The notes beneath the pieces were generated by a model, which was not told the origin of the DNA, did no database searches, and worked only from the letters and a program-made list of their open reading frames with translations. 64,000 bases of DNA, taken from positions 50,038-114,037 of the forward strand of contig JAUSJC010000007.1 in the NCBI GenBank assembly GCA_030647775.1, given 5' to 3'. Position 1 is the stretch's first letter. Every line of letters begins with the position of its first letter. Source of the DNA: Candidatus Curtissbacteria bacterium. GTDB taxonomy: Bacteria > Patescibacteriota > Microgenomatia > Curtissbacterales > GWA2-41-24. The position numbers and the translations under genes were made by a program. Shown here in pieces: positions 4,283 to 32,742 of the stretch.

Positions 4283-4861
4283 TTGGCGGCATTGCGTCCA
4301 CTTTCAACACTTGCTGAAGGCGTAACAAATCAGGAATATCAGTTTCCCTGGTCTAGAGATGAAATTCTTTTTGGGCCAAACGCCGGATTTATAGAAGCGA
4401 AAAAAGGAATTCCTCTTGGTGTTTATGCCGCCAGCGGCATACGACCGGACCTTGTTAATTTAAGTATGGCACCCTGGAATAATTTAGCAAACAGTATGGG
4501 GAGAACTGATCTTTTTTACTTCGAAGAAAATCCATCTAGGGCAAAAATAATTATTGGTCAAAGTACGAAAGACTATAGCTATACTGTAGCAAATCCTGAT
4601 TTTAAAAGTCCCTATTTAAGATGCGATATTTACTTGGTGAATCAATGGATAGGAGTTATAACACATGAACTGGGCCATACACTTGGATTTGTTGATTTTA
4701 TTTATAAGGATACTGATCCCCGGGATTATTTCAATCCTAAACGTTGTGATCTTCCGGACAAACCTATTCACAGTATAATGGCACAAAATTTTATTGTTAC
4801 ACCAACAGTGTTGATTGGACCAGACGATGGAATCATGCTTAGGCTCGCGGGGTACGTTTAA
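4283..4861 (+). CDS. putative zinc metallopeptidase (HExxH, metzincin-like)
   Basis: 'HELGHTLGF' HExxHxxG motif followed by 'SIM' (possible Met-turn); start codon uncertain (TTG at 4283). Confidence 0.5.
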   Translation: MAALRPLSTLAEGVTNQEYQFPWSRDEILFGPNAGFIEAKKGIPLGVYAASGIRPDLVNLSMAPWNNLANSMGRTDLFYFEENPSRAKIIIGQSTKDYSYTVANPDFKSPYLRCDIYLVNQWIGVITHELGHTLGFVDFIYKDTDPRDYFNPKRCDLPDKPIHSIMAQNFIVTPTVLIGPDDGIMLRLAGYV

Positions 4862-8277: not shown

Positions 8278-8433
8278 GTATCACTTGCTAAGTGTCAAGG
8301 AATTAAAGTTTCCAACTCTATATGTGATAAAATTATTCGAAACTAAAGCAGGGTATATCAGCAGGTCGCTTTGGCACAGCCCTTCGGGCTTCATGCCAAT
8401 AGCGCTCCTCTGATATTCCTCCTCACTACGTTC

Positions 8434-10013: not shown

Positions 10014-10265
10014 CTACCCTACTTCTTCTTGCAGTTCTTCGTCAACGTTTAGGGGACCCGGACCATGGGCTTCGTCGCCGTGCAAACCGACCTTTTTGAG
10101 TTCTTCGTCAATGTCCGGGGACTCGGAAGTTGTGGCGTCGCCGGAAAAAACATCTTCCTCGCCGGTTACAGAAGGAGGCGCAACCGGGTCTTGAAATTGG
10201 TTTTCCTCTGTCCCGGTGTCATTGATATTCGGAGCGTTTGGAATTGTGTGGTCGTCCGGAGCCAT
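10014..10265 (-). CDS. hypothetical acidic low-complexity protein
   Basis: 83-aa ORF rich in D/E/P/T; may not be coding. Confidence 0.25.
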   Translation of the reverse strand: MAPDDHTIPNAPNINDTGTEENQFQDPVAPPSVTGEEDVFSGDATTSESPDIDEELKKVGLHGDEAHGPGPLNVDEELQEEVG

Positions 10266-10294
10266 AATTATATTTTAGCAGAAATTGTGCGGTG

Positions 10295-10377
10295 TGCCGA
10301 GAGAGGGGATCGAACCCTCACGCCATTGCTGGCACAAGATTTTAAGTCTTGCGTGTCTGCCATTCCACCACCTCGGC
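10295..10377 (-). tRNA. tRNA-Leu(TAA)
   Basis: Class II tRNA with long variable arm; anticodon loop CUUAAAA; acceptor GCCGAGG; T-loop GGTTCGATCC. Confidence 0.8.
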
Positions 10378-10488
10378 CCGTTAGAAGTACGGTGATCGAT
10401 TTTTATTTTAAATAGTATATCAAAAATTTAAGAACGAATTGTGCCTTATTATAATAACCAAACTTCTAACGGGCCTCGGCTGGGTTTG

Positions 10489-10562
10489 GGGAGGCCGAGG
10501 GGAATTGAACCCCCAACCCGCAGCTCCACAAGCTGCTGCTCTACCATTGAGCTACGACCTCC
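10489..10562 (-). tRNA. tRNA-His(GTG) with G-1 and genomically encoded CCA
   Basis: Anticodon loop UUGUGGA; extra 5' G opposite discriminator C73; the only tRNA in the window followed by an encoded CCA. Confidence 0.8.
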
Positions 10563-10609
10563 ACGAATGGCCATATTATATCAGTTTTACGAGTTACGAT
10601 CAGAGTAAA

Positions 10610-11305
10610 TTAACTGGCGAAGCGATATTTTAATAAGATATATATTGCCCTAAAGCCATCCTTGATGCCGATTTTTTTCCCTTCCTGATAACTGCGGCTT
10701 TTATATGCGATTGGGATTTCCACGATTTTTAAGCCTTTTTTAAGAAGCTTACAGGTAATTTCCGGCTCAAAACCAAACCTGTCTTCACGCAGCTTGATTC
10801 CCTTTAAAACTTCACTCTTAAAGCATTTATAACAGGTTTCCATGTCTGTAATCTGGGCCCGGTAGAGGATCTTTGTCAGAAACGAAAGGAAAAGGTTACC
10901 GGCATAAAAAAGCAAATATTTTGGTTTGTGGTTGGGGTTCAGGAATCTTGAGCCGTAAATGACGTCGGTGCCGCTATTTTTTATTTCTGAAATTAATTTC
11001 AAATGATCGTTTGGGTCATACTCCAAATCGGCGTCCTGGATAAGGATTATCTCCCCTTTTGCTTTTGAAAACCCCGAGCGGAGGCAGTACCCTTTTCCCC
11101 TATTTTTGTTATTCCAGATTTTGGTAATGCCGGCGATTTTATCTATTTTCTCCTGCGTGCTGTCCTTTGAGCAATCGTTAATAACGATAATTTCAAACGT
11201 GCCCGGGTATTTGACTTTTTTAACGGCCGCGACGATTTGCCCGATTGTTTTTTCTTCGTTATAGGCGGGTATGATAATAGAGAAATCGATTTTTCTGCTT
11301 TTCAT
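10610..11305 (-). CDS. family-2 glycosyltransferase (dolichol-phosphate mannosyltransferase-like)
   Basis: 'FSIIIPAYNEE' plus 'INDCSKD' plus 'IQDADLEYDP' (DxD) GT2 motifs. Confidence 0.8.
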   Translation of the reverse strand: MKSRKIDFSIIIPAYNEEKTIGQIVAAVKKVKYPGTFEIIVINDCSKDSTQEKIDKIAGITKIWNNKNRGKGYCLRSGFSKAKGEIILIQDADLEYDPNDHLKLISEIKNSGTDVIYGSRFLNPNHKPKYLLFYAGNLFLSFLTKILYRAQITDMETCYKCFKSEVLKGIKLREDRFGFEPEITCKLLKKGLKIVEIPIAYKSRSYQEGKKIGIKDGFRAIYILLKYRFAS

Positions 11306-11510
11306 GTTTTAGGTTTGTATTATATTCGAAGAATACAAATTTTTCTCATTAATTCCTTGAGAGAATTATAATCGCAACAGCGTGGCGTCGACAATTGTCT
11401 AATTCTCGGGTACAATTAGAATCTGCAAAAGGGTTTGCGCCCGTAGCTTTAGATAGTTATTACACGCGTAGCGTGGAACTATAGCAAGCTACACAGCAAA
11501 TTGAAAATTT

Positions 11511-11584
11511 GCGCCCGTAGCTTAATGGATAGAGCAGACGGCTTCGGACCGTAAGGTTGGGGGTTCGACTCCCTCCGGGCGCAC
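11511..11584 (+). tRNA. tRNA-Arg(TCG)
   Basis: Acceptor GCGCCCG/CGGGCGC, anticodon loop CUUCGGA, T-loop GGTTCGACTCC. Confidence 0.75.
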
Positions 11585-11607
11585 TTCTGCAGAGCAGAAT
11601 TGCTAGG

Positions 11608-11868
11608 ATGTATCAGGTGTACATTTTAAGAAGTTTAAGCAATGGATCTCGGTCATATGTCGGCTTGACCTTGAAGGGGATAAAAAATAGATTAAAAGAG
11701 CACAATGCCGGGGAATCTAGATACACGAAAACCTATATTCCATGGGAGCTAGTGTACTTTGAAAACTTTTATTGTAGGTTATGTGCAGAGAAAAGAGAAA
11801 AATTTCTAAAATCGGGTTTTGGGTATCGGTTTAGAAAGTTGATTTTAGAGAAGTTTAAAGCAGGATAA
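11608..11868 (+). CDS. stand-alone GIY-YIG nuclease-domain protein
   Basis: 'YQVYILRS...YVGLT...RLKEHN' motif; ORF-track start at 11557 lies inside the tRNA-Arg gene, so the Met at 11608 is the likely start. Confidence 0.65.
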   Translation: MYQVYILRSLSNGSRSYVGLTLKGIKNRLKEHNAGESRYTKTYIPWELVYFENFYCRLCAEKREKFLKSGFGYRFRKLILEKFKAG

Positions 11869-11890
11869 TTTTACGTTCTGCTTTGCAGAA

Positions 11891-11964
11891 CGGGGAGTAG
11901 CTCAGTTGGCTAGAGCGCTGCTTTTGGGAAGCAGAGGCCGGAGGTTCAAGTCCTCTCTCCCCGA
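11891..11964 (+). tRNA. tRNA-Pro(TGG)
   Basis: C1-G72 acceptor (CGGGGAG), anticodon loop UUUGGGA, T-loop GGTTCAAGTCC. Confidence 0.8.
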
Positions 11965-12279
11965 CACTATTGGCATTTTTTAAATTTAGCTTGTTTGTAC
12001 AATCCGAAAGGGGTTCGAAGATTAAATATCACAAAAAGGCATAGCTTCGAGACGGGTTCGAAGATAGGACTACAGTATAATTTGATCTAAGTTAACCTAA
12101 TTCTAACCAAAAGATAACCTAATTCAAGTCAACCAGATACGCACAAACTTGACGCAGTTTGATCTAAATGGATACAATACTTGACGTAGTTTGTGCTATT
12201 GCCATTTTTTGCCGGGGGCATTTAAGATATCTATAGATATCTGCACTTTAATTAATTACGGGTAGGGTAAAAGAAACAG

Positions 12280-12368
12280 TCCTGCCGACGAGATTCGAAC
12301 TCGCAAAAACCGTGTCACGGGTTAGTAGCTTGATAGGCCACCGCGTCTACCAGTTGCGCCACAGCAGG
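12280..12368 (-). tRNA. class II (long variable arm) tRNA of uncertain identity, embedded in a 13-bp leader/trailer inverted repeat
   Basis: Acceptor CCUGCUG/CGGCAGG, 3-bp D-stem with GG D-loop, variable stem-loop CCGU-GAC-ACGG, T-loop GAGTTCGAATCTC. The best fold gives anticodon loop CUAUCAA (formal anticodon AUC), which matches no Leu/Ser/Tyr/Sec isoacceptor. Confidence 0.5.
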
Positions 12369-12827
12369 GCAACGTCTTTTACCCTATCCTCAATTAATTT
12401 TTAAGGTTCTCCTACAAAAAGGCACCTTGCCTTCCGGCTTAGGTGCTCGATTCTTCTCTATTTAGTCTGCACCCACAACTTTTATTTTCAGGGCTATCTC
12501 GCACCTCCTCGATAGCTCACCGTTTACCTATTAATTTATACTGCCCTTATTATGAAAATGTGGCATTTGGCATGCAGACTGAATTTCACGAATATGCCAA
12601 AAGCACAATATATTGTGGTCTAATCTTAGTATATACACAACTGAAAATAATAATCAAGCGCTTTTATCATTTCCGGCCGCCACAGACCCGGTAGCGGGTC
12701 TAGTTTCGCTTTACCTTGCCAAAAAGCCTATTTAATTCTGCTCAGTTTAATTTTTGGAGTAAATCGTTAATATATTGGATTTCAATAGCTGTAAGGGTTC
12801 GAATATCGCTCCATAGACCCGACCAAG

Positions 12828-18851: not shown

Positions 18852-19622
18852 ATGAGACTCAAGTTTCTGCAGGTCAATATTTTCAGGGGAAAGTTTTTAG
18901 GCTCGCTTTTAGATTTTATAGAAAAGGTAGACCCGGATATTATTACGATGCAGGAGGTTTCTTGCGGGGAGATAAATTTATATGAGGACAAAAAAGCTGA
19001 CCTTTTCGAACTTATAAAGGGAAAAACAGGATATGACGGAGTTTTCCATTCGGATACAAGCCTTTCAGGCAGTCCTTTTTCGCGATTTGGAAATGGGGTT
19101 TTTAGCAAATGGCCTATTAACAGTTCAGCAGTTGTACCTCTAGCAACTTATGGATCTTTGACTTTAGATGAGTTTAATAATAACAAGGGTGACGTTTGGG
19201 CAAGACTATCCCGCCATATGTTGGACGCGGAAATTGAAATAGAAGGGAAGGCTGTGCATGCAATTTCGATCCATGGTAGAAGAATTGCGCCGCCGCTAGA
19301 TGACCCGGAGAATATTCGTCAGGCGCATGTGATGGCAAACCATTTAAAATCCTTTGGTGATAAGCCGTTTATTGTCGGAGGGGATTTTAATATGCCTCCG
19401 GGAACTGAAGTTATAAAAATTGTTTCGTCTGTTGCTAGTAACTTAATGGCCGACTGCGGGGTAAAACAGACCTTAAACCCGCAGGAACATGAGCTCGGGG
19501 AAAAAGGTTACTTGGTTGATTTTATCTTTACCTCGAAGCATTTTAAGAAGATTTCTTTGGAGGTACCGCAAGTGACGGTTTCGGACCATTTGCCGGTTGT
19601 GGCAGAGTTGGAAATGCTTTGA
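18852..19622 (+). CDS. endonuclease/exonuclease/phosphatase (EEP) family protein
   Basis: 'LQVNIF...DPDIITMQEV' N-terminal motif and C-terminal 'SDHLPV' His. Confidence 0.75.
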   Translation: MRLKFLQVNIFRGKFLGSLLDFIEKVDPDIITMQEVSCGEINLYEDKKADLFELIKGKTGYDGVFHSDTSLSGSPFSRFGNGVFSKWPINSSAVVPLATYGSLTLDEFNNNKGDVWARLSRHMLDAEIEIEGKAVHAISIHGRRIAPPLDDPENIRQAHVMANHLKSFGDKPFIVGGDFNMPPGTEVIKIVSSVASNLMADCGVKQTLNPQEHELGEKGYLVDFIFTSKHFKKISLEVPQVTVSDHLPVVAELEML

Positions 19623-19778
19623 TAAAATACTCTCCTGATTTATAATTGTTTTGCGGGGTGTGGTTCAATATACAGTGCCATGCGGTTCTCGTTCTGCAAT
19701 GCAGAACTGTGGGCCTAGGTAGAATGCGGGATTAGTTGATCGGCTCAACATTCGCTTTCCCCGCCTGCCAGAGCCTAT

Positions 19779-19849
19779 GCGGGTGTAGTTCAATGGTAGA
19801 ACACCAGTTTTCCAAACTGGATACGGCAGTTCGATTCTGCTCACCCGCT
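19779..19849 (+). tRNA. tRNA-Gly(TCC)
   Basis: Acceptor GCGGGTG, anticodon loop UUUCCAA, T-loop GTTCGATTC. Confidence 0.8.
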
Positions 19850-19905
19850 CAGCATTGGCGGGCAGGCAAGCGAAAAAGAGGGGTTCGACTCCCCTATCCC
19901 GCTCC
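19850..19905 (+). other. tRNA-like 3' fragment (T-arm plus acceptor-like end) immediately after tRNA-Gly
   Basis: 'GAGGGGTTCGACTCCCCTATCCCGCTCC' resembles a T-arm and acceptor 3' strand with no D or anticodon arm; it carries the motif 'GGCAGGCAAGCG', also found at 22917 and 23588. Confidence 0.25.
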
Positions 19906-19958: not shown

Positions 19959-20201
19959 TTGATGTACTACGTTTATATACTTCAGAGTTCAAAATCTGGA
20001 ATTTTTTACTACGGTTATACGACCGATTTAAAGAAGAGATTTAAAGAACATAACGAAAGCAAGTCTAAATTCACGAGCGGTCATATACCCTGGAAGCTTG
20101 TTTTCTACTGTGCATTTATTGATAAGAAAAAGGCAAAAGATTTTGAACTTTATCTAAAATCAGGATCTGGCAAGGCGTTTGCCTATAAGAGATTAGTTTA
20201 A
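19959..20201 (+). CDS. stand-alone GIY-YIG nuclease-domain protein
   Basis: 'YYVYILQS...YYGYTTDLKKRFKEHN'; paralogous to the gene at 11608..11868. Confidence 0.65.
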   Translation: MMYYVYILQSSKSGIFYYGYTTDLKKRFKEHNESKSKFTSGHIPWKLVFYCAFIDKKKAKDFELYLKSGSGKAFAYKRLV

Positions 20202-21608: not shown

Positions 21609-22559
21609 GTGGTGCAAAAAACTATCCTTATTGTTGAAGATGATGATGACATCCGCGACTTTCTAAAAAAAGTCCTGGTAGCTAATAACTACAAAGTAGC
21701 AGAGGCAGCTGATGGGGCTGAGGCCCTGGAGGCTGTAGAAAAATACTTTCCAGATTTAGTACTTCTTGATTTTGGGCTACCCAAAGTTTCAGGAGAAACG
21801 GTTTGTGTAAAAATCAAAAAGGACCACCCGGAGATTATTGTTATTGCTCTAACTGAAAAAGCCAAAAGCGCTGATGTTGTGCACGGCTTACAAATAGGTG
21901 CGGATGATTATATTAGTAAGCCTTTTGTTGCCGAGGAAGTGGTAGCAAGGATAGATGCGAGGTTTAAAGCAGTTGTAAATGGGCAGGCGATACCTAAGGA
22001 AAAACCTGACCGCAATGCTTCGACAAGCGTGCCGGGCGGGAAAGAGCCGAAGATAGGGAAAATAATAATTAGAGAAAGTATTGTCCTAGTTATTATCCGG
22101 CTAATTTTTACAGAGGCTGTTTTCGGATTGTCGCTTTTTCTTCTTAGCATTTTATATTCTTACCTGAGTACATATTTAAATACTACTTACCTCTCAGGCC
22201 TGTACTCTCTAGTTTTAGCAGTAGGGGTTTTAATAAATATTGCAATAGTAATCTTAATTACTTTAAAACGGAACTCGGAATATACTGAAGTCTCTAAAGA
22301 TGGAGTTACAAAGCATAGCGGAATCCTGCAGAGGAAAGAGCAAACATACGCCTGTAATTTTGTTGAGGGAGCTAAACTTAGACAGTCTTTTTTGGGTTTA
22401 CTTTTTAATTACGGGACAATTGAATTATATGATCCAGCGTTGAAAGAGCAAGTTTACTTATTAAGTATAGCAAACCCCAAAAAATATAGTAAAACTATAC
22501 AAAATATTCTTTCAAAAGAAAAAGATCAACCCATACCGTTTATAGCCCCGGCGGGGTAA
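21609..22559 (+). CDS. response-regulator receiver domain fused to a membrane bPH_2/DUF304-like C-terminal domain
   Basis: REC motifs 'ILIVEDDDD', 'VLLDFGLP', 'LTEKAKS'; the C-terminus has two TM helices then 'GILQRKEQTYACNFVEGAKLRQSFLGLLFNYGTIELYD'; no DNA-binding domain. Confidence 0.65.
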   Translation: MVQKTILIVEDDDDIRDFLKKVLVANNYKVAEAADGAEALEAVEKYFPDLVLLDFGLPKVSGETVCVKIKKDHPEIIVIALTEKAKSADVVHGLQIGADDYISKPFVAEEVVARIDARFKAVVNGQAIPKEKPDRNASTSVPGGKEPKIGKIIIRESIVLVIIRLIFTEAVFGLSLFLLSILYSYLSTYLNTTYLSGLYSLVLAVGVLINIAIVILITLKRNSEYTEVSKDGVTKHSGILQRKEQTYACNFVEGAKLRQSFLGLLFNYGTIELYDPALKEQVYLLSIANPKKYSKTIQNILSKEKDQPIPFIAPAG

Positions 22560-22731
22560 GGGGGAATGACAACATTGGCGGTGGCTATCGGACGGTTTAT
22601 TTTGCCTCTCCTGGGCTTGATAAGCCCCCATTAATTTTCTAAAATGGGCTATAATCTGCATGAAGAAGCGGGGTTCGGAATAAGCATATCTTGCGATTCT
22701 AAGAATCTAAATTTGCGTCTCCCGCTCCAGC

Positions 22732-22834
22732 GCCCGCGTAGCTCAACGGATAGAGCAGTCGCGTTCTAAGCGATTGTGGGGGTACGCTTTTTCGCGTAGC
22801 GAAAAACTCGAGAAGTCAGATCCCTCCGCGGGCA
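22732..22834 (+). tRNA. tRNA-Arg(TCT)-like gene carrying a roughly 35-nt hairpin insertion in the T-loop
   Basis: Collinear with the canonical tRNA-Arg(TCT) at 29913..29985 through the acceptor, D-arm and anticodon arm (loop GUUCUAA). The T-loop TTCGAAT is replaced by 'T-ACGCTTTTTCGCGTAGCGAAAAACTCGAGAAGTCAG-AT'; the T-stem (GGGGG/CCCTC) and acceptor are preserved. Confidence 0.5.
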
Positions 22835-22914
22835 CAGGAAATTATGGCGTGTAGCGGAAGGATTGGGCTCTGCCCGATGCCTACCCACCCCGACTTTTCG
22901 CGCGCTAAATTCCA

Positions 22915-23000
22915 AAAGTACCGGGTGCAGGCAAGCGGAGCTGTACCAAAAAAATCCGAAGTGCTATTGCCCTGAGTTTATCGAATGGGCTAAAATTAGC
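22915..23000. repeat. 87-bp direct repeat, copy 1 (promoter/5'UTR-like), upstream of the DUF4258 toxin gene
   Basis: Shares 'ATCCGAAGTGCTATTGCCCTGAGTTTATCGAATGGGCTAAAATTAGC' (47/47) with 23583..23667, and the upstream 40 nt at about 80% identity. Confidence 0.7.
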
Positions 23001-23011
23001 CAACTTAGACG

Positions 23012-23266
23012 ATGAAAATTATTTATACACAACATTCGGAAGAAAAACTTAAACGGAGAGATATTAAGAAGTTCAAAATTAATAAAAAACTAATTAAATC
23101 AATTTTAAAAGATCCTCAAATTAAATCCAAAACAAAGTATGGTGATAGCTGCGCCCTGTCAGCTATCAATGGTGACCACGACATAAGAATTATCTATGAT
23201 ATAATAAGTAAAGATAATTCTAAGGTTATAACCTTTCATATCTCTAAAAGAGGCAGGTACGGATGA
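23012..23266 (+). CDS. DUF4258-family toxin (toxin of a DUF4258/DUF2283 TA pair)
   Basis: 'IIYTQHSEEKLKRRDI...IRIIYD...KVITFHISK' matches the DUF4258 pattern; 4-nt overlap (ATGA) with the downstream partner. Confidence 0.55.
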   Translation: MKIIYTQHSEEKLKRRDIKKFKINKKLIKSILKDPQIKSKTKYGDSCALSAINGDHDIRIIYDIISKDNSKVITFHISKRGRYG

Positions 23267-23475
23267 AATTAAAATATTACAAAAAAGACGACATTTTGGT
23301 TATGAATTTTTCCTCAAAAGCTGTTGAGGATTCGTATGAAGTGGAAAGCGCGATTTTAGAAGTCGATAAAGAGAACAATCCTGTATCACTAGAAATTCTG
23401 CATGCTTCCAACTTTTTTAATACAGCCTCCAAAGAACTTCCAATCGGAATCAAGCAAAAATTTTTCTCAGCCTAA
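23263..23475 (+). CDS. DUF2283-family antitoxin
   Basis: 'MKLKYYKKDDILVMNF...VSLEILHASN' matches DUF2283 (consensus 'MKIEYDKEADALYI...GIEILNAS'). Confidence 0.55.
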   Translation: MKLKYYKKDDILVMNFSSKAVEDSYEVESAILEVDKENNPVSLEILHASNFFNTASKELPIGIKQKFFSA

Positions 23476-23582
23476 CTCCTTGCGCTTTCGCACATATCAT
23501 CACAAACTGTGATGATATGGATTAAATACAATCGTAAAAGGTCACCATATATTTTTGCGCTGAGGATTCCCAAAACGCGCCA

Positions 23583-23667
23583 AAGTACCGGGCGCAGGCA
23601 AGCGGCCCTATCCCCAAAAAATCCGAAGTGCTATTGCCCTGAGTTTATCGAATGGGCTAAAATTAGC
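23583..23667. repeat. 87-bp direct repeat, copy 2, upstream of the 732-aa ORF
   Basis: See copy 1. Confidence 0.7.
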
Positions 23668-23687
23668 TCGTTTAAATTTATATGTAA

Positions 23688-25886
23688 ATGGCACAACAAT
23701 ACCTTGAATTAAAAACAAGCGAAGGCTCTGTAAGAAAATATCCAAACGTCATGTGGTTTCCTCGTTCCAAGACTGACCCCCAAGAAATAAGAGAGGTGCT
23801 TAAACTTGCCTTAAAAATACAAGACGAAAATTCTGATAAATATTTCAATGATAAATTATTGGGTGAACACATGGCACGAATAGGATCAATTAATGTCCTG
23901 GGGATGAAAGGGGAAGATTATATAAAATCGTACCAAGGAAAAAGTATTGGAGACGTTTCTTATATAACCAATGCTCGCATGTTGATGCGACTTTTTAGAT
24001 TCCTTGGTCTTGCCACTAGACTTGAAAGGGGGAAATACGCAATTACTGTACTTGGTAGAACCTATGTAAAATTTAATGGGGACTTCCCTTCTCAGCTAAA
24101 TGGGGAAAATGAAGAACAGATACTGCTACAATTACTCGCAAACTTTGCATTTTACTGCGTTAACGACGACAGCAAGTACAGAGATTCGTCTTTTCAAGTT
24201 AGGCCTTTCATTTGGCTACTCAACACATTAGCTATTGAGCCGCAATGCATTATTCAACTTATCGTAACCGCTTATGCTTCCAAAAGTGAAGGTTTTAATG
24301 AAATTAAAAGGATTAAAAATATTTTAAGTAATCTCAAATCAGGGAAAAGCACCCTTAAAGACGAGTTCACAAATCTAGGGCTGAATCCTAACGACTATAG
24401 CTGCGTTCATAATTTTTACGATAGTGCAAAGATATTAGTTTACTTGGGAATAAGCTTGGGGCTAGTAAAAAAAACCAAAAGCCCTACATATGGAAGAAAA
24501 ATTGCGGGAAACGCTAAGTATCTTAAAAACGCGTCTGCTTTTTACAATCTTACCGTAAAGGGCGAGAAGTATTTAGAAGAAAATATTCAGAAAAAACTCA
24601 TTTATTACTCCGACTTATACAAGGTACTAGGAAACAAAGACGTCCTTCAGTGCTCCTTTATATTAGCGGTGCTCAACACTTCAATCGGCGCTAAGAAAAT
24701 TGAGTCCATAAATATTAATTTTTTCAAAAAAATCTTGGGAAACAAATGGGAAAAATATACAAACTCTCTTAGAAAAAACCTGCAAATTGAAATAGAAATA
24801 AAAGATGGAAAAGTTGCTCTAAAAGATCGGATTTCATTCAACTTTTTCCAAAGCATGCCCCCCGAGTTTTTATACGATGAACCTATGAAAAATTGGTACA
24901 CTGTATTCATGGAGGAATTTAGTGACAAAAAATCTAAGTTATTAAATACAACCACATCAAAAATGGAAGAGCAATTTTCGGGAGAAATAACATCCAAATT
25001 TATACTAGACAAAGATAAAAATCTTGCATACGAAGTTCCTTCACTCACTCTCAAAGAAGCACAAGATTACATAAAGTACGAATACATGGACAATATTTTT
25101 GGGGGTCAAGATAGATATGCTAGTAGGATTTCTCCAACAAATTCAGTAATTCTAGTGGGTGATAAGGTTCATGTAGACAATGTCATTGACGCTCTTGACT
25201 TATTAATTCCGCTTAGACATCCAGACGAAAGGTTAAGAAAATTTATCGATGCCAACATTTCTCAGTTGCTAAAAACCTTTTTGTCCAGATCTGATACATG
25301 GGCAAAGGATCAACATTACGCATGGGTAAGAAACTGCTTTAGACTTTTTGGGGCTACGGCAATTTACTCCGGTTCTAGCGGCATGCTTTCTAGAGCAGAC
25401 ATTAGCATCATTGATCCATTTCTTGGTGGCGTTGAAGCAAAAAGCCCTAGTGAGAACAGGGGCAGTATAAACACAAAAGCAATTAGACAAGCACTCGATG
25501 CTAAAGTTCAGGTTGTAGATTTATATCCCGAAAAGAAAGGCATTCCAAAAATTGCGATAGCAATCGGAAGAAGAATTACTCCATTAGCAATTGCAGAAGA
25601 AAAGAAATGGCGATCAGGAGAAAATCAACCAGTACTTCTAATAACTGATGTAGTTCTTTACTATTTAACACTTAAGTCACTTGATATTCCCTTTGACGAC
25701 AAAGATTTAATTAGACTTTTTACCCAAAATGTAGGACTGCTCGATACGAAATCTTTGAGTGTATCCCTTGAAGAAATAATGAATAACAAAAAAATAGATA
25801 GTCAGGTTAAAGAGAAAATTAGAGAGGAGCTCAATAACTTAGGGGGATTGGTAAGTGGCTCGATTGAGGGAGCAATCGAGGAGTAA
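23688..25886 (+). CDS. large hypothetical protein (732 aa); candidate restriction endonuclease or defense effector partnered with two DNA methyltransferases
   Basis: No recognised family. A possible PD-(D/E)xK-like 'IIDPFLGGVEAK' lies near residue 570. Convergent with, and overlapping by 56 nt, the first MTase gene. Confidence 0.35.
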   Translation: MAQQYLELKTSEGSVRKYPNVMWFPRSKTDPQEIREVLKLALKIQDENSDKYFNDKLLGEHMARIGSINVLGMKGEDYIKSYQGKSIGDVSYITNARMLMRLFRFLGLATRLERGKYAITVLGRTYVKFNGDFPSQLNGENEEQILLQLLANFAFYCVNDDSKYRDSSFQVRPFIWLLNTLAIEPQCIIQLIVTAYASKSEGFNEIKRIKNILSNLKSGKSTLKDEFTNLGLNPNDYSCVHNFYDSAKILVYLGISLGLVKKTKSPTYGRKIAGNAKYLKNASAFYNLTVKGEKYLEENIQKKLIYYSDLYKVLGNKDVLQCSFILAVLNTSIGAKKIESININFFKKILGNKWEKYTNSLRKNLQIEIEIKDGKVALKDRISFNFFQSMPPEFLYDEPMKNWYTVFMEEFSDKKSKLLNTTTSKMEEQFSGEITSKFILDKDKNLAYEVPSLTLKEAQDYIKYEYMDNIFGGQDRYASRISPTNSVILVGDKVHVDNVIDALDLLIPLRHPDERLRKFIDANISQLLKTFLSRSDTWAKDQHYAWVRNCFRLFGATAIYSGSSGMLSRADISIIDPFLGGVEAKSPSENRGSINTKAIRQALDAKVQVVDLYPEKKGIPKIAIAIGRRITPLAIAEEKKWRSGENQPVLLITDVVLYYLTLKSLDIPFDDKDLIRLFTQNVGLLDTKSLSVSLEEIMNNKKIDSQVKEKIREELNNLGGLVSGSIEGAIEE

Positions 25887-26640
25887 TTTCATTTAATCTT
25901 TTCTCCGCCATTTCTACATATTTAGGATTTAATTCAAAACCAATATATTTTCGATCATTCATTCTTGCACTTACGCATTCACTCCCTGACCCCACGAATG
26001 GCATCAACAATGTGTCTCCCTGATTTGAAAAATGGTTGATGATTTTATGACATATGGCTAACGGTTTTTGCGTAGGATGATCAACTTTCTCGTTAGCAAA
26101 TCTTTTACCCGCTAACGTAGGAATTTCCCATATATCTCCACCATGCTTTCCTTCAGGATGTGGCGTCCAGACCTTACCATTTTTTATAATTTTATTCCTT
26201 AATCTCTCCGTACTTTTATAAGGTTCCCTAATCGTATGGTAAGTGTAATCTTTACCTTTATAAAACCATAATAGAGGTTCGTAAGCGGCTGCAGGCGCGC
26301 GTCTATACATTGAAAAGTTATTTTCATAATGCCAAATAAATAATCTCCCATAGAATAACCCTATATCGTATAAGTATGCCTGAATGTACCCAATATTATG
26401 ATGAATACCATATACAAAAAGAGAACCATTTGGCTTTAGGACTCGCTTTGATTCCTTTAGCCATTTTTTCATCCACTTAAACCATTCTTCATGATTCTTG
26501 AGATTCCATTTTTCACCATTTCCAAAATCTTTTTCTATTCCATATGGAGGATCTGCAATAATTAGGTTAATTGATTCATTGTCAATTTTTTTATATAAAT
26601 CAAGACAATCACCGGTATAAATTTTATTTAAATTAAACAT
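25831..26640 (-). CDS. DNA methyltransferase, beta-class N6A/N4C family (DPPY)
   Basis: Motif IV 'ADPPYG' near the N-terminus, motif I 'MPFVGSGSE' near the C-terminus (beta-class order). Confidence 0.8.
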   Translation of the reverse strand: MFNLNKIYTGDCLDLYKKIDNESINLIIADPPYGIEKDFGNGEKWNLKNHEEWFKWMKKWLKESKRVLKPNGSLFVYGIHHNIGYIQAYLYDIGLFYGRLFIWHYENNFSMYRRAPAAAYEPLLWFYKGKDYTYHTIREPYKSTERLRNKIIKNGKVWTPHPEGKHGGDIWEIPTLAGKRFANEKVDHPTQKPLAICHKIINHFSNQGDTLLMPFVGSGSECVSARMNDRKYIGFELNPKYVEMAEKRLNEITPRLLPQSSHLPIPLSY

Positions 26641-26641
26641 G

Positions 26642-27499
26642 CTACTTATTGTTCTGCAAGATTAGTATATATTGATTGTGAATATTGGGAACATAAGAAA
26701 AAGGATATCCATAGGGAAAGATTTTTTTGCGGCTTTGATAGAGTATAGTTATTCCTTTCAATTTATAATTCTTTTGTTCTAATTTGTTAGCAAGATCTGC
26801 ATGGAACATATAATATCTATCTTTGTGTCTAAAATCGCTAACTACTATACATAAATATTTCTTTGGTTTTAAAATCCGACTACAATCATTGAAAAAACCG
26901 GACAAAATTTCAAGAAACTGATCATAATCAGTAATATTTCCTAAATCTTCTTTAAGTTCACTATATTTTGTGTCTAGACCATTTGAAATCCGAGTGGAAA
27001 TGACTTTATGGTCAGCCTTTTTATTTAAAATACTCCAGTACGGAGGACTCGTTACAATAAAATCAAAATGGTCATCTTTAAAATCTTCGACCACTTTCAG
27101 CGCATCTCCTTGAATAACAGACTGGTCTTTATTGTCAAATAAACCATTGAGTTCAGTCTCAAGTCTCTTTTTCGTTAACTCCACATATTTAGGAACTAAC
27201 TCAATACCGACACCCCTTCGATTTAATATAGCGCAGGCCTTAAGAGTAGATCCTACTCCAACAAAAGGGTCTAATACTTTCTGCCCTGATTTCGTAAAGA
27301 ACCTGATTAGCCTTCCCACGTCTTGGAAAGAATATGGAGCGGGATGTTGTTTCTCAATTTGAGCTTCTTTATGGCCTGCCCCTAATCCTTTTTGAACATA
27401 CACCGAGATTGTTTCGGGAATCCATTCTGAGGCTGAAAGATCATTAAGATTATTTACAAGTTTCCTCTTCAACTGCCCATCGTTTATATTTAAACCCAT
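26642..27499 (-). CDS. DNA methyltransferase (SPPY motif, probable N4-cytosine type)
   Basis: Motif I 'DPFVGVGST' then motif IV 'TSPPYW'; SPPY/SPPF is characteristic of m4C methyltransferases. Confidence 0.7.
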   Translation of the reverse strand: MGLNINDGQLKRKLVNNLNDLSASEWIPETISVYVQKGLGAGHKEAQIEKQHPAPYSFQDVGRLIRFFTKSGQKVLDPFVGVGSTLKACAILNRRGVGIELVPKYVELTKKRLETELNGLFDNKDQSVIQGDALKVVEDFKDDHFDFIVTSPPYWSILNKKADHKVISTRISNGLDTKYSELKEDLGNITDYDQFLEILSGFFNDCSRILKPKKYLCIVVSDFRHKDRYYMFHADLANKLEQKNYKLKGITILYQSRKKIFPYGYPFSYVPNIHNQYILILQNNK

Positions 27500-27671
27500 T
27501 GTTATTATTAAATTTATTCTACACAGTATCTAACCACAATTAACACACAACATTAAATATACGAATAAAACCCGAAGATGTCAAGCGTGGACTTGACCCT
27601 AATTAAACCTAGTTGGGTTGTGTAACAACAAAAAACCAAGTAAGATCTATCACAAATCTTAAAATAATTAG

Positions 27672-27938
27672 ATGAACCCACTAGAACACATAGAAAAAAT
27701 TCAACAAGTAACAGACATCAACGAAAAAATAAGGTTGCGAACAGAATTTAAAGAAAAATATCCAAACGAATTTGAAGAATACATGAAGGCAATACCCAAA
27801 CAAAAACAGAGACCGCCACTTTGCTATGGTTGCAAGCATTTTATAAAAAGCGGTGATTGCGAATTAAATCTATTCCCGATTGGGAATGTTTTTAAGGATG
27901 TTATTAATTACACATGTCCCTCTTTTGAGAAAAAATAA
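27672..27938 (+). CDS. hypothetical small Cys-containing protein
   Basis: 88-aa ORF containing 'CYGCKHF...C...C'. Confidence 0.3.
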   Translation: MNPLEHIEKIQQVTDINEKIRLRTEFKEKYPNEFEEYMKAIPKQKQRPPLCYGCKHFIKSGDCELNLFPIGNVFKDVINYTCPSFEKK

Positions 27939-28051
27939 ACGGAAATTGACACCTTTCCTCCCAAATAATAATCTATACTTGTGTTAAAAACCCTGGAAAA
28001 AGAAAAAGCATATAAGGTTGGCCGGAAGAAATTGCAATTGTGGATGGGAAA

Positions 28052-28639
28052 TTAGGAATTATTCTTTAAGATTCCTTCCTTTTGCAGTCTTCTTAAAATA
28101 ACAGCGTCTGAAACTTGAAAAATTTCAGGTAGATCCTGCACAGCTGGAGCAATGATTTCCGGTAATTCCATGGATGGAATTTTTCCGAGCCGCTTTTTTA
28201 ATTCTTCAAGCAATTGCTCAGTTGGAACCAAAACCAATCCCGCAAAAGTATGTGCTTGTATTTCAGTAAACTTGTAAACTTGCTCATCTATTCGATCATG
28301 AGATGTAAGATATTCTTCAAAATTATTCGGTCCGTACTTTTCGTACCATTCCTTGTGCAATATTAAATGACCAACTTCATGGGCGATGGAAAATCTCGTT
28401 CTTTCGGGAAAACGCGTGAAATAATTTTCATCAACCGTTATTTGGGTAAAGTCCGAACTTATAAATGCATCTACTCCAATTAATGATCTAATGCCTGGTA
28501 CCGCGAACAGAGCAATTCCCATTTTGCTTTCAACTATATTTTCAATTGGAATTGGTAGGGTTAGCGAGGAATGATATGTCTGTAAAAATTTATCTGCTGC
28601 TCGTGCTACATCTACTAATCTTAAATTCGGTCCTTGCAT
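28052..28639 (-). CDS. ImmA/IrrE-family metallo-endopeptidase (DUF955)
   Basis: 'SIAHEVGHLILH' HExxH motif in the DUF955 context; immediately downstream of an XRE HTH gene. Confidence 0.7.
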   Translation of the reverse strand: MQGPNLRLVDVARAADKFLQTYHSSLTLPIPIENIVESKMGIALFAVPGIRSLIGVDAFISSDFTQITVDENYFTRFPERTRFSIAHEVGHLILHKEWYEKYGPNNFEEYLTSHDRIDEQVYKFTEIQAHTFAGLVLVPTEQLLEELKKRLGKIPSMELPEIIAPAVQDLPEIFQVSDAVILRRLQKEGILKNNS

Positions 28640-28642
28640 CCA

Positions 28643-29038
28643 TTATTCCTTCTTACCGACATCATTGAGAAGCTTGATTAATTGGATAATTTTCTTTTTA
28701 TCCAACTTTTCACCTCTAGCAGTTCTGTAAAAGGCAGGCAAAATAGAAAGAATGTGTGGACTTTTAAGCAAATCCTCTGGGAGTTTTCCTTTTGCTGCAT
28801 GAGCAAGATCAAAGAATATTGTCCATTCTTCGCTGTCGCGCGGAATTTTTAAGGCTAATGCGTATCCTTCAAGTTTTTGTTTATCTATGCTTGGAGGAAG
28901 AATATTTCTTTCAAGTCTGCTGATGTTACCCGGGTCGTAGCTATACCTTTCACAAAAAGATCTCAAGGTAAACCCTAAGGTTATTCTTTTTAATCTGAAA
29001 AATTCTCCGAAGGTTTGAGCAGTGTCTTGACTTTTCAC
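28643..29038 (-). CDS. XRE-family helix-turn-helix transcriptional regulator
   Basis: N-terminal 'FGEFFRLKRITLGFTLRSFCERYSYDPGNISRLERN' HTH_3-like segment; 4-nt gap before the ImmA partner. Confidence 0.6.
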   Translation of the reverse strand: MKSQDTAQTFGEFFRLKRITLGFTLRSFCERYSYDPGNISRLERNILPPSIDKQKLEGYALALKIPRDSEEWTIFFDLAHAAKGKLPEDLLKSPHILSILPAFYRTARGEKLDKKKIIQLIKLLNDVGKKE

Positions 29039-29129
29039 AGGAAGTGTTGTAAAAATATTACAACGTTATTTTAACGCAGCACTTGACTATTGTCAAGTCG
29101 ACAAAAAATTAGAAAGGCGGTGAATAAAA

Positions 29130-29339
29130 ATGGCAGTATTTAAGATCTACAAAGACGTTCAAGGCTATTACCGATGGCGATTCCGAGCAGCTAACAATAA
29201 AATCATCGCCGACAGCGGTGAAGGATACGTAAAGTGGCAAGATGCGAAAGCAGGAATAGATTTTATTAAGAAATATGCACCTGATGCCGAAGTTAAAGAC
29301 TTAACCGCACAAAAAACTGCTCGAGGACTCTTTAGTTAA
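29130..29339 (+). CDS. DUF1508 (YegP-like) protein
   Basis: 'FKIYKDVQGYYRWRFRAANNKIIADSGEGY' matches the DUF1508 repeat. Confidence 0.55.
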   Translation: MAVFKIYKDVQGYYRWRFRAANNKIIADSGEGYVKWQDAKAGIDFIKKYAPDAEVKDLTAQKTARGLFS

Positions 29340-29391
29340 AGGAGGTGAAGTCGATGAAATTTATACAAATTGCGGTTACCCGCGCAGGGGA

Positions 29392-29553
29392 AATGTATTT
29401 AGTATTTAGGATTGTGGTTTAGTCCCAGTACTAGATTCCGGGCTTGGAGTCGGCGAGGGAATTACTGTTGGATTAAATACGGGTTCGACAAGCTCACTGC
29501 TATAACTTGTACCTCCGCGATATCTGTCACCTTAAGCACGTTGGGATTTTAGC
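29392..29553. repeat. repeat family C copy 1 (about 160 nt)
   Basis: About 80% identical to 31528..31667. It contains the hairpin ACAAGCT-N9-AGCTTGT and the conserved 'CCGCGATATCTGTCACCTTA'. Confidence 0.65.
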
Positions 29554-29831
29554 TTCGTTTCTTGAGCAGCTAATTAATTTTGGCTTGGATGGTAAAAAAC
29601 TAAAACTGTCCGAACTTAAAAAACACTTTAGTAGGTTGCAGATAGATCCGGCGAAAAAAAGGTATTTGAAGTTTTTGCTCTCCTCGCCCCAATGAGCCAA
29701 ACACACATTCTAACTGAGAGGCAAAAGCTTCTTTGAATGAGCGCGATTGGCAGGATTTTTTTCTGATCTGGAATGTTATAATCCCCAAAGCAGCAGACCG
29801 GTTAGAATTTCGTCCAACCAGCCGCTCCCAT

Positions 29832-29877
29832 GCGCCTGTAGCTCAACGGATATCAGCAGCGCTTCGCGCTCTGATAT
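29832..29877 (+). other. tRNA 5' fragment (acceptor plus D-arm of the tRNA-Arg family) fused to an unrelated hairpin
   Basis: 'GCGCCTGTAGCTCAACGGATA' is identical to the 5' 21 nt of the tRNA-Arg-like genes, then 'TCAGCAGCGCTTCGCGCTCTGATA'. Confidence 0.4.
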
Positions 29878-29912
29878 TTTTAAGTTACACTTAAAAAGAG
29901 AGCAAATTTTAT

Positions 29913-29985
29913 GCGCCTGTAGCTCAATGGATAGAGCACTCGCGTTCTAAGCGATTGGTTGGGGGTTCGAATCCCTCCAGGCGCA
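29913..29985 (+). tRNA. tRNA-Arg(TCT), canonical copy
   Basis: Acceptor GCGCCTG/CAGGCGC, anticodon loop GUUCUAA, T-loop GGTTCGAATCC. Confidence 0.75.
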
Positions 29986-29995
29986 CATAAAATTA

Positions 29996-30075
29996 ATCGC
30001 GTTCTAAGCGAATGATTGGGGGTTCGCTTTTTTCGCGCAGCGAAAAACTCGAGAAGTCAGATCCCTCCAGGCGCA
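29996..30075 (+). other. tRNA-Arg(TCT) 3'-half fragment (anticodon stem to 3' end) carrying the T-loop hairpin insertion; att-like
   Basis: 'TCGCGTTCTAAGCGAATGATTGGGGGTTCG-CTTTTTTCGCGCAGCGAAAAACTCGAGAAGTCAG-ATCCCTCCAGGCGCA'; the same insertion as at 22732..22834 with compensatory changes in its stem. Confidence 0.5.
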
Positions 30076-30244
30076 CACACGTCTTGCTCCGACGTAAACG
30101 CTTCAGTTTCTCTCATGTATAATATTTTTAGTGAAGATTTCCGGCGGGCTTGTTGTTAATCTTATTGCAGGTTTAAAAGGACTTATGTCAAAAACATATA
30201 CCAAAAATTAAGAAAGATGTTTGTGGAGATGAATAAAAATTACT

Positions 30245-31527: not shown

Positions 31528-31667
31528 GATGTATTTAGTTTAGGGCCTGGAAGCGCCAGATGTTGACTCTACCGGGCTGGGAGTCGGTGAGGAGATTACG
31601 GTGGCGTTAAATACGGGTTCGACAAGCTCACTGCTATAGCTTGTACCTCCGCGATATCTGTCACCTT
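31528..31667. repeat. repeat family C copy 2
   Basis: See copy 1. Confidence 0.65.
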
Positions 31668-31904
31668 ATTTCAATAGACTTTCTTTGGAAGTTCAAAATA
31701 GAAATCTTATGAGGTGTGTTTATAGCTCTTGGAGCAAAGATTAAAACGACTCTTGTGGTGCTAATCTGTCGTATTCCGTAGATAATTTTTTTTGCAACTT
31801 ATTCGAACCACGTACCGCTTCTTTAATTATTCGTTTCTTTTCTTTAGCGGGTAATTCGAAGAAGTTTGTACCTTTGTCTTTTTTGATCAAGAAATTGAGT
31901 ACTT

Positions 31905-32659: not shown

Positions 32660-32742
32660 GAGGGACAGGAGAAGAAATCATTGTTGCATTGAATACTTGA
32701 ACCTCGGCGATATCTGTCACCTTAAGCACGTTGGTATTTTAC
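32660..32742. repeat. repeat family C copy 3 (internally deleted)
   Basis: 'ACCTCGGCGATATCTGTCACCTTAAGCACGTTGGTATTTTA' matches the 3' 45 nt of copy 1 (including the 'AAGCACGTTGG' tail); the central hairpin is missing. Confidence 0.55.

Follow-up and report, generated by a model that had tools for sequence, protein, structure and literature searches.

The 64,000-nucleotide stretch analysed here (the window) comes from a Candidatus Curtissbacteria genome of the candidate phyla radiation (CPR). At 29832-30075 it holds an intact tRNA-Arg(UCU) gene nested within its own older copy, between positions 26 and 27 of the latter, and a second tRNA-Arg(UCU)-like sequence, copy 1, lies 7 kb upstream. The T-loops of the older copy and of copy 1 are each interrupted by a short insert consisting of a hairpin and a tail, and the same insert recurs in other contigs, in remnants of other tRNAs. 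The two insert-bearing sequences are probably retired tRNA-Arg(UCU) copies in a nested tRNA-replacement array, each disabled by this small recurrent insert, which in turn was probably placed at the DNA level. These data suggest that tRNA loci of Microgenomates are rebuilt repeatedly, with the working gene nested in its older selves, of which we found no description; full-text searches of the published literature gave no account of short insertions in T-loops, or of nesting among tRNA genes, in CPR bacteria. They also carry a warning, as full-length sequences resembling tRNAs, together with many fragments, are present in CPR genomes and may be wrongly counted as tRNA genes or introns.

An intact tRNA-Arg(UCU) gene lies inside an older copy

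The working gene, a canonical tRNA-Arg(UCU) that we call B, occupies 29913..29985 on the forward strand, as do all other parts of the array, and is detected by ARAGORN and by Rfam (67.3 bits). It sits within an outer, retired tRNA-Arg(UCU), V2, whose 5′ part (29832..29852) runs from the acceptor 5′ strand through the D-loop sequence GGATA and was recognized from the repeat family, alignment and ARAGORN after joining. Two inserts follow in the D-loop of V2. The first (29853..29874) is the palindrome TCAGCAGCGC-TTCG-GCGCTCTGA with TA on both sides, which folds at −23.3 kcal/mol (z = −4.2) and appears terminator-like in a terminator scan. The second (29877..29897), found by the palindrome scan, is a perfect T5...A5 palindrome, TTTTTAAGT-TAC-ACTTAAAAA, and its layout of CTGATA, T-run hairpin and A-run is also seen in tRNA-Ile remnants of three related contigs (L007, L015 and L016). 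Reconstitution assigns 29898..29904 (GAGAGCA, with a 2-nt duplication) to the D-stem 3′ strand and nucleotide 26 of V2. Sequence inspection shows B bracketed by an 8-bp inverted repeat with the left arm AATTTTAT at 29905..29912 and the right arm ATAAAATT at 29987..29994. The 3′ part of V2 (29997..30075; alignment, repeats, ARAGORN after joining) then supplies the anticodon arm, the variable loop, the T-arm with its insert and the acceptor 3′ strand CAGGCGC.

The acceptor strand of the 5′ fragment pairs with that of the 3′ fragment, and when the pieces 29832-29852, 29900-29904, 29996-30026 and 30061-30077 were joined, ARAGORN returned tRNA-Arg(tct). The intact gene is therefore nested in an older copy of itself, since the outer pieces, joined and freed of the T-loop insert, restore the same tRNA. 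The initial annotation of the window had placed a second insert copy in a 3′-half tRNA fragment, and this is confirmed (34 nt at 30027-30060). It had overlooked the 5′ fragment at 29832-29852, as well as the compensated acceptor differences, the U55A change and the 3-nt variable loop of copy 1 described below.

A full-length but defective copy lies upstream

Copy 1 (22732..22834, forward strand) was defined by Rfam alignment, by ARAGORN without the insert and by alignment to the canonical gene. It reads GCCCGCG-TA-GCTCAACGGATAGAGC-A-GTCGC-GTTCTAA-GCGAT-TGT-GGGGG-TACG-[CTTTTTCGCGTAGCGAAAAACTCGAGAAGTCAG]-AT-CCCTC-CGCGGGC-A. A default Rfam scan does not list copy 1, and ARAGORN makes no call for it as it stands; with 22787-22819 removed, ARAGORN reports tRNA-Arg(tct). 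A permissive scan matches RF00005 to copy 1 end to end at 41.8 bits (gathering score 29), with 36 nt replacing 4 T-loop positions in the alignment. The proposal that copy 1 is collinear with the canonical gene at 29913..29985 apart from the T-loop is thus upheld, and the covariance-model check suggested for it gives a permissive tRNA match that skips the T-loop insertion. The T-loop hairpin and tail, put at roughly 35 nt, are real, with an exact length of 33 nt between TACG and ATCC.

The acceptor stem of copy 1 (GCCCGCG/CGCGGGC) differs from the canonical one (GCGCCTG/CAGGCGC) in three pairs. Because all three differences are fully compensated, copy 1 appears to descend from a separate, once-functional tRNA-Arg lineage. 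Compared with V2, it differs in three acceptor pairs, the variable loop and positions 27, 43 and 55. A functional bacterial tRNA has a 7-nt T-loop with U54, U55, C56 and A58, and a variable loop of 4–5 nt. Neither insert-bearing copy has such a T-loop and variable loop: the T-loop of copy 1 is UACG-[33 nt]-AU, with U55 replaced by A, and its variable loop is 3 nt, while the T-loop of the other is UUCG-[34 nt]-AU. Nor is either needed as a gene, the intact tRNA-Arg(tct) being present at 29913-29985.

Between residues 57 and 58, the T-loop closes via the 54–58 pair and receives an intercalating D-loop base. Because the insert falls there, it would destroy the T-loop fold, and a carrier would be expected to work only with the insert removed; with the fold destroyed, the carrier could not serve as a tRNA. 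We infer from this that the carriers are non-functional.

The insert recurs in tRNA remnants of other contigs

The insert of copy 1 (22787..22819, forward strand; alignment and palindrome scan) lies between G57 and A58 and consists of a C, a hairpin at 22788-22806 and a tail at 22807-22819. The hairpin is TTTTTCGC-GTA-GCGAAAAA with the core GCGTAGC, and the tail is the 13-nt CTCGAGAAGTCAG. The second insert (30027..30060, forward strand; alignment, palindrome scan and profile) has the core GCGCAGC and its tail at 30048-30060. A 25-nt probe that runs across the hairpin arm, tail and T-stem has exactly two matches in the window, whereas 100 shuffles gave an expectation of 0.

We searched 185,579 species genomes for ACTCGAGAAGTCAGATCC and obtained five loci, two of which are real (L004, from another Curtissbacteria metagenome-assembled genome (MAG), and L002). 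The other three are chance matches, two being the same coding sequence in two Vicinamibacteria MAGs and one being apparently intra-coding. A metagenome scan with the pattern GGTTCG-N15-45-CGAGAAGTCAGATCC gave 13 loci; eight are real (L007 = L008, L010, L011, L012, L015 = L017, and L016) and represent six distinct copies, and the remaining five are apparent chance matches without tRNA-like context. This brings the further distinct copies to eight (L002, L004, L007, L010, L011, L012, L015 and L016) and the total, with the window, to ten. All real copies follow one layout, T-stem, TTCG, pyrimidine-run/purine-run hairpin, CTCGAGAAGTCAG, AT(C) and T-stem, with insert lengths of 27–41 nt and varying T-stems (GGGGG, CCTGG, TCAGG, AATGG, GTGG, GGAGG and others). 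This gives a searchable signature (TTCG, GCGNAGC hairpin, CTCGAGAAGTCAG, ATCC) that marks one step of the process and may lead to the enzyme.

The hosts of the further copies are tRNA-Ile remnants, which start at the anticodon loop CTGATA, tRNA-Thr remnants and three unassigned remnants. Nine of the ten carriers are truncated or split tRNA copies, and an intact tRNA with the same anticodon stands beside every carrier whose context is readable; in L007, L011, L012, L015 and L016, an intact tRNA-Ile or tRNA-Thr lies 10–300 nt upstream of the remnant. L007 has three nested layers, each with 5′ and 3′ halves whose acceptor strands match, and an inverted repeat brackets each next inner layer. Its fragment 3 and the fragment in L015 are the same kind of remnant with the same flanks, and of the two, that of L015 alone has the insert; at its empty site, L007 has TTCG^ATCC and shows no duplication. 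The insert is also absent from further retired copies of these arrays, namely the L011 middle fragment and the outer tRNA-Gly of the window.

A profile built from the ten copies found no further copy in 225 kb of related DNA up to E = 10, and no viral contig scanned for the insert 18-mer gave a match. A genome-wide REP-like family was rejected, as there are two copies in 64 kb, both in tRNA-Arg T-loops, and none more in the 225 kb.

Since the source is a MAG, and near-repeat tRNA arrays are hard to assemble, we considered an artefact in which strain variants of one tRNA-Arg locus were stitched together. This is extremely unlikely: the same architecture and insert are found in independent JGI, NCBI and ENA assemblies from different samples and assemblers, and the pieces join to nucleotide precision into valid tRNAs.

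Two further observations concern these contigs. A second motif, CTGAGTG[G/T]AATCGAAGGG, occurs within T-arms, or adjacent to them, among further tRNA remnants of the unrelated contigs L015 (~2120-2175) and L010 (~4425-4450), which suggests that more than one small-insert family may target dead tRNA copies. In L011, a gene for a VirD4/TrwB-like type IV coupling protein (10265-12634) lies just upstream of the nested tRNA-Ile array and hints at a conjugative or mobilisable element beside it.

The insert probably originates at the DNA rather than the RNA level

The two inserts of the window have the same 3′ arm of five A. The second adds one unpaired T in the 5′ arm and a T→C change in the loop, and there is no covariation between the two. 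The initial annotation had read compensatory stem changes into this pair and had concluded that the RNA structure is under selection. That argument fails because the compensatory changes do not exist, and the hairpins folded as RNA are no more stable than shuffled sequences (z = −0.3 and −0.7). The stem variant CGC/GCG is common to both window copies and absent from the other contigs, while the tRNA bodies differ, which fits copying within the genome.

Several features hint at a DNA-level origin. The simple hairpins are all perfect Watson–Crick palindromes with zero G–U pairs, and the three perfect T5...A5 palindromes in 64 kb are all at tRNA-Arg remnant sites. In six of seven simple hairpins, the tip is GCGAAGC (L007, L011, L004), GCGTAGC (copy 1, L016) or GCGCAGC (the second window copy); L015 has TCGAAGA. 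GCGNAGC is the ‘mini-hairpin DNA’ motif, which is extraordinarily stable as DNA and occurs at single-stranded DNA priming sites of phages and plasmids (PMC13037366). The insertion lies 3′ of a fixed motif, (G)GTTCG or a near variant (TACG in copy 1, GGTTG in L002), in 10/10 copies; the metagenome pattern demanded GGTTCG upstream, and L002 and L004 come from the genome scan, which is free of that requirement. A DNA-level origin is favoured because of the GCGNAGC motif, the lack of a target duplication and the fixed site 3′ of TTCG.

An RNA role of another kind would be as a tRNA-derived noncoding RNA or processing element, for example a 3′ trailer structure by which RNase P, RNase Z or CCA addition is either directed to the adjacent intact tRNA or kept from it, or a decoy for tRNA-targeting toxins from neighbouring genes. 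The insert-bearing piece is in the likely 3′ trailer of an intact tRNA in seven contigs, the tail is identical where T-stems and hairpins differ, and PIN, zeta and other toxin–antitoxin genes are nearby in the window. However, copy 1 sits 7 kb from the intact gene, other retired copies of the same arrays (L007 fragment 3, L011 middle, outer tRNA-Gly) are without the insert, and part of the tail identity follows from how the search patterns were built. Together with the G–U-free stems and unremarkable RNA stability, this makes such a role quite unlikely.

Under the DNA-level reading, the tRNA-Arg locus of this genome would have been rebuilt repeatedly. The working gene at 29913-29985, with its 8-bp inverted repeat, would have come to lie inside its older self, and copy 1 would be a foreign-looking second copy beyond a defence and toxin–antitoxin island. 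The insert would be a portable DNA-level insertion rather than an RNA intron. Its landing site, TTCG^A in the T-loop coding sequence, is the best-conserved DNA word of tRNA genes. The insertion would abolish tRNA function and persist only where an intact paralogue makes the copy dispensable. As for its placement, we infer a DNA process, which may resemble that of single-strand hairpin elements or may be a repair-linked, templated insertion.

Single-strand DNA hairpin elements include the IS200/IS605 ends, REP sequences and single-stranded DNA priming signals whose mini-hairpins are of the GCGNAGC type. Like these, the insert combines a stable DNA hairpin with ~10–13 conserved bases up to the junction, lies 3′ of a fixed TTCG and makes no target duplication. 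Unlike these, it has one hairpin instead of two ends and a very low copy number, and neither the window nor the related loci yielded an HUH enzyme, a cognate HUH (Y1) transposase included. The likeness is thus one of resemblance rather than membership. A more specific possibility, which we put forward tentatively, is an undescribed site-specific single-hairpin DNA element (GCGNAGC mini-hairpin plus CTCGAGAAGTCAG) that lands at TTCG^A in Microgenomates within a cassette-driven system of tRNA turnover. Self-contained tRNA cassettes, some with GIY-YIG nucleases of 80–90 amino acids, would then repeatedly insert into and replace resident tRNAs and leave nested dead shells, and the insert would be either a footprint left by this machinery or a means of neutralising the T-arm in displaced copies. 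If a site-specific single-stranded DNA mechanism does place the insert, this would amount to an insertion system of very small size with a precise target, namely a sequence that is conserved universally.

Some of the data weigh against retirement by a DNA insertion. Apart from its defects, copy 1 forms a good cloverleaf in which the acceptor stem is paired throughout, and a promoter-like site lies ~85 nt upstream; copy 1 may be expressed and have some RNA-level role. In the window and in most copies, the T-loop that surrounds the insert (TTCG...AT) is short by one nucleotide, and the insertion is therefore not perfectly clean everywhere. Stem sequences vary between copies with the pairing kept, which would follow equally well if an RNA hairpin were under selection or if some process made or maintained DNA palindromes. 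The invariant tail and constant orientation are partly a matter of ascertainment, as both search patterns required CGAGAAGTCAGATCC in the sense orientation, and we do not count them as independent evidence. The insert is also low-copy (1–2 per locus), which sets it apart from typical miniature mobile elements, and we saw no long, autonomous form of it. Finally, no integrase, HUH/Y1 transposase or other recombinase turned up near any array when the open reading frames (ORFs) between 19 and 40 kb, and the genes neighbouring eight related arrays, were scanned with Pfam and NCBIfam.

A T-loop intron is very unlikely

Taken at face value, copy 1 would provide the first case of a short intron in the T-loop of a tRNA from bacteria. 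It would be a working tRNA-Arg(UCU) whose 33-nt element is an intervening sequence that is excised and ligated, or tolerated as an expansion of the elbow. The complete cloverleaf with its compensated acceptor stem, the promoter-like site and the hairpin kept in 10/10 copies despite different stem sequences are compatible with this, and CPR bacteria are rich in introns and in short unexplained rRNA-gene insertions (PMC13011429, PMC11270868). The evidence is nevertheless against it, and we regard it as very unlikely. Nine of ten carriers are truncated or split and unable to yield a tRNA, an intact tRNA of the same anticodon is next to each carrier with readable context, and copy 1 lacks U55 and has the short variable loop. 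Excision would leave a 6-nt T-loop without A58/A59 in most copies, and the 57/58 site is where the D-loop base intercalates. The mini-intron offered in the initial annotation consequently finds no support: the insert is too short, matches no Rfam intron model, shows no bulge–helix–bulge and breaks the T-loop fold, and its carriers are mostly truncated or split.

Known intron classes were examined individually. For group I or II introns, permissive Rfam scans of 22600-30200 and 1-34000 returned no intron family, and the insert, at 33–34 nt against the at least 200 nt needed, has no catalytic core match. An archaeal-type intron was rejected on two grounds. By inspection, no bulge–helix–bulge can be drawn at the insert borders: UUCGC follows the 5′ T-stem strand and AGAU precedes the 3′ strand, there is no 4-bp helix with 3-nt bulges, and AGAU is without a partner after the 5′ strand. 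The host, moreover, is bacterial (UvrA, UvrC and a two-component system in the window; F-type ATPase and Mur ligase in related contigs). No EndA splicing endonuclease is present among the ORFs scanned in the 64-kb window. Hammerhead, twister and pistol ribozymes were ruled out by eye, their required helices or core motifs being absent; the same holds for the hairpin ribozyme, although its loop A has the octamer AGAAGUCA too. A K-turn was ruled out by inspection. The insert hairpins are not intrinsic terminators, as the T-run precedes the stem and pairs with the A-run.

Several described insertions are comparable in part. Non-canonical tRNA introns of archaea and of Cyanidioschyzon merolae include T-arm positions (PMC9602550, PMC3728597, PMC4390854) and are likewise short insertions in the D-, anticodon- and T-loops, sometimes several per gene. 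They have a bulge–helix–bulge, are removed by EndA/TSEN and interrupt the sole gene for their tRNA, whereas here the host is bacterial, there is no bulge–helix–bulge, and the carriers are redundant and mostly truncated. Patescibacteria have group I introns in the anticodon loops of tRNA genes (PMC13011429). These are from the same phylum and likewise interrupt tRNA genes so as to defeat standard tRNA finders, but they are catalytic, hundreds of nucleotides long and located in the anticodon loop, while the present insert, 27–41 nt in length, is located in the T-loop and has no match to an intron model. Among rRNA genes, the intervening sequences of 23S rRNA and the short unclassified insertions of CPR bacteria (PMC11270868) are similar in that a short hairpin-forming insertion sits at a conserved helix tip, is patchy and is thought to have spread horizontally. 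In those cases the rRNA is functional and RNase III excises the insertion without ligation, whereas the present hosts are dead, and a tRNA cut in its T-loop would not function.

A classical integration event is unlikely

The low-GC accessory island between the two insert-bearing copies (22835..29831; GC, Pfam and NCBIfam) has a GC content of 0.33–0.40, against 0.43–0.47 in the flanks. It encodes a DUF4258/DUF2283 toxin–antitoxin pair, a 732-residue ORF of no assigned family, two N6_N4 DNA methylases, an ImmA/IrrE peptidase and an HVO_2922-family ORF. Two tRNA-Arg-like direct repeats around such a defence and toxin–antitoxin island could be a classical attL/attR pair, with a 7-kb island integrated in tRNA-Arg by a tyrosine integrase and the insert forming part of the attP arm. 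T-loops and anticodon loops are known crossover sublocations of tRNA-targeting integrases, and tRNA fragments and pseudo-tRNAs left at tRNA-linked integration sites are well documented (van der Gulik et al. 2023, PMC9897764). However, no integrase was found in or next to the island or any related array (Pfam/NCBIfam), and the 5′ and 3′ acceptor strands match within each copy (GCCCGCG/CGCGGGC and GCGCCTG/CAGGCGC). Since each copy is self-consistent in this way, there was no crossover inside the tRNA bodies. Hybrid sites with an identical crossover core are not seen either, as the copies differ at the positions given above, and homology between the two window sites ends at the tRNA borders. In six other contigs, the insert-bearing remnant is 10–300 nt from the intact tRNA with core genes directly after it and no island.

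We therefore regard classical integration as unlikely. Of the earlier suggestion of a recombinase attachment-site variant, what survives is a by-product of DNA rearrangement at a tRNA gene, while attL/attR in the classical sense falls with the missing integrase and the self-consistent acceptor strands. As with the published fragments (PMC9897764), partial or defective copies are found next to an intact tRNA and at the edge of accessory DNA, and they can readily pass for unusual tRNA genes; different here are the absence of an integrase, the nested halves around a new gene with variable break positions and the recurrent T-loop insert.

Other tRNA loci of the window are rebuilt, some beside GIY-YIG genes

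Returning to the nested replacement that we favour, similar arrangements are found elsewhere in the window. When 19726-19760 and 19868-19905, which surround an intact tRNA-Gly (19779-19850), are joined, ARAGORN gives tRNA-Gly(tcc). This outer tRNA-Gly is broken within its anticodon loop, and the inner gene is bracketed by inverted repeats (19761-19769 and 19857-19867). The genes for tRNA-Lys (8434) and tRNA-Arg(TCG) (11511) are each preceded by their own short 5′ fragment and then palindromes (8351-8413 and 11437-11510, respectively).

Palindromic mini-insertions with the ends TCAGCAG...CTCTGA and TA on both sides are found at 29853-29874 and 8358-8413; the latter, in front of tRNA-Lys, reads TCAGCAGG...CCTCTGA and is related to the palindrome at 29853-29874. 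They sit in the D-loop region of dead tRNA-Arg and tRNA-Lys copies and look like TA-duplicating miniature elements. In L007, a TCAG...CTGA pair encloses a whole inner tRNA layer.

ORFs of 80–91 amino acids that encode only a GIY-YIG domain adjoin several of the rebuilt tRNA genes. In the window, one is located between tRNA-Arg(TCG) and tRNA-Pro (11608-11868) and another just after the tRNA-Gly array (19959-20201). In L019, whose tRNA-Arg(TCT) is also preceded by a 5′ fragment, the ORF (19336-19587) lies between that fragment and the intact gene. In L023 (4001-4276), the order is tRNA-Gly 5′ fragment, intact tRNA-Gly, GIY-YIG gene and acceptor 3′ fragment. Homologues are 72–91% identical across Curtiss-, Roizman- and Cerribacteria and are mostly on very short contigs, as expected for mobile or strain-variable DNA. 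These data are consistent with mobile tRNA cassettes, several with adjoining small GIY-YIG genes, driving the turnover of tRNA genes. Because no GIY-YIG ORF adjoins the tRNA-Arg(UCU) array, the link between these genes and the T-loop insert is by association. Nuclease-driven take-over of a tRNA locus is documented for phage T4 SegB, a free-standing GIY-YIG homing endonuclease in a tRNA cluster (PMC2330249). The CPR genes are alike in being small GIY-YIG genes beside tRNA genes with displaced older copies; they differ in that the proteins comprise the catalytic domain only and in that none of the genes is adjacent to the tRNA-Arg(UCU) array.

A further tRNA is located at 12279-12368 on the minus strand. 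It is 90 nt long with a long variable arm and is called tRNA-Asp(ATC) by ARAGORN (Rfam 42.5 bits). Since the loop reads CTATCAA, the anticodon is doubtful, and this tRNA may belong to an unusual class II or suppressor-like type.

Surroundings of the two tRNA-Arg copies

No CRISPR-like array was found in the window. Upstream of copy 1 is a response regulator gene (21609-22559) whose product is 100% identical to an NCBI protein assigned to Candidatus Curtissbacteria and whose homologues are all from Microgenomates; in other Microgenomates these are not followed by a tRNA-Arg, hence there is no orthologous locus to compare. Within the island, an 86-nt repeat with 93% identity (22915-23000 and 23582-23667) carries a promoter-like box, TGGGCTAAAAT, ahead of two small gene pairs, and a similar box, TGGGCTATAAT (22636-22655), is found ~80 nt upstream of copy 1. 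A 97-nt direct repeat with 91% identity (29438-29534 and 31572-31668) and a third, partial copy (32695-32741) flank the tRNA-Arg array on both sides; toxin genes (PIN, zeta toxin) surround these repeats, which may mark the edges of additional accreted segments.

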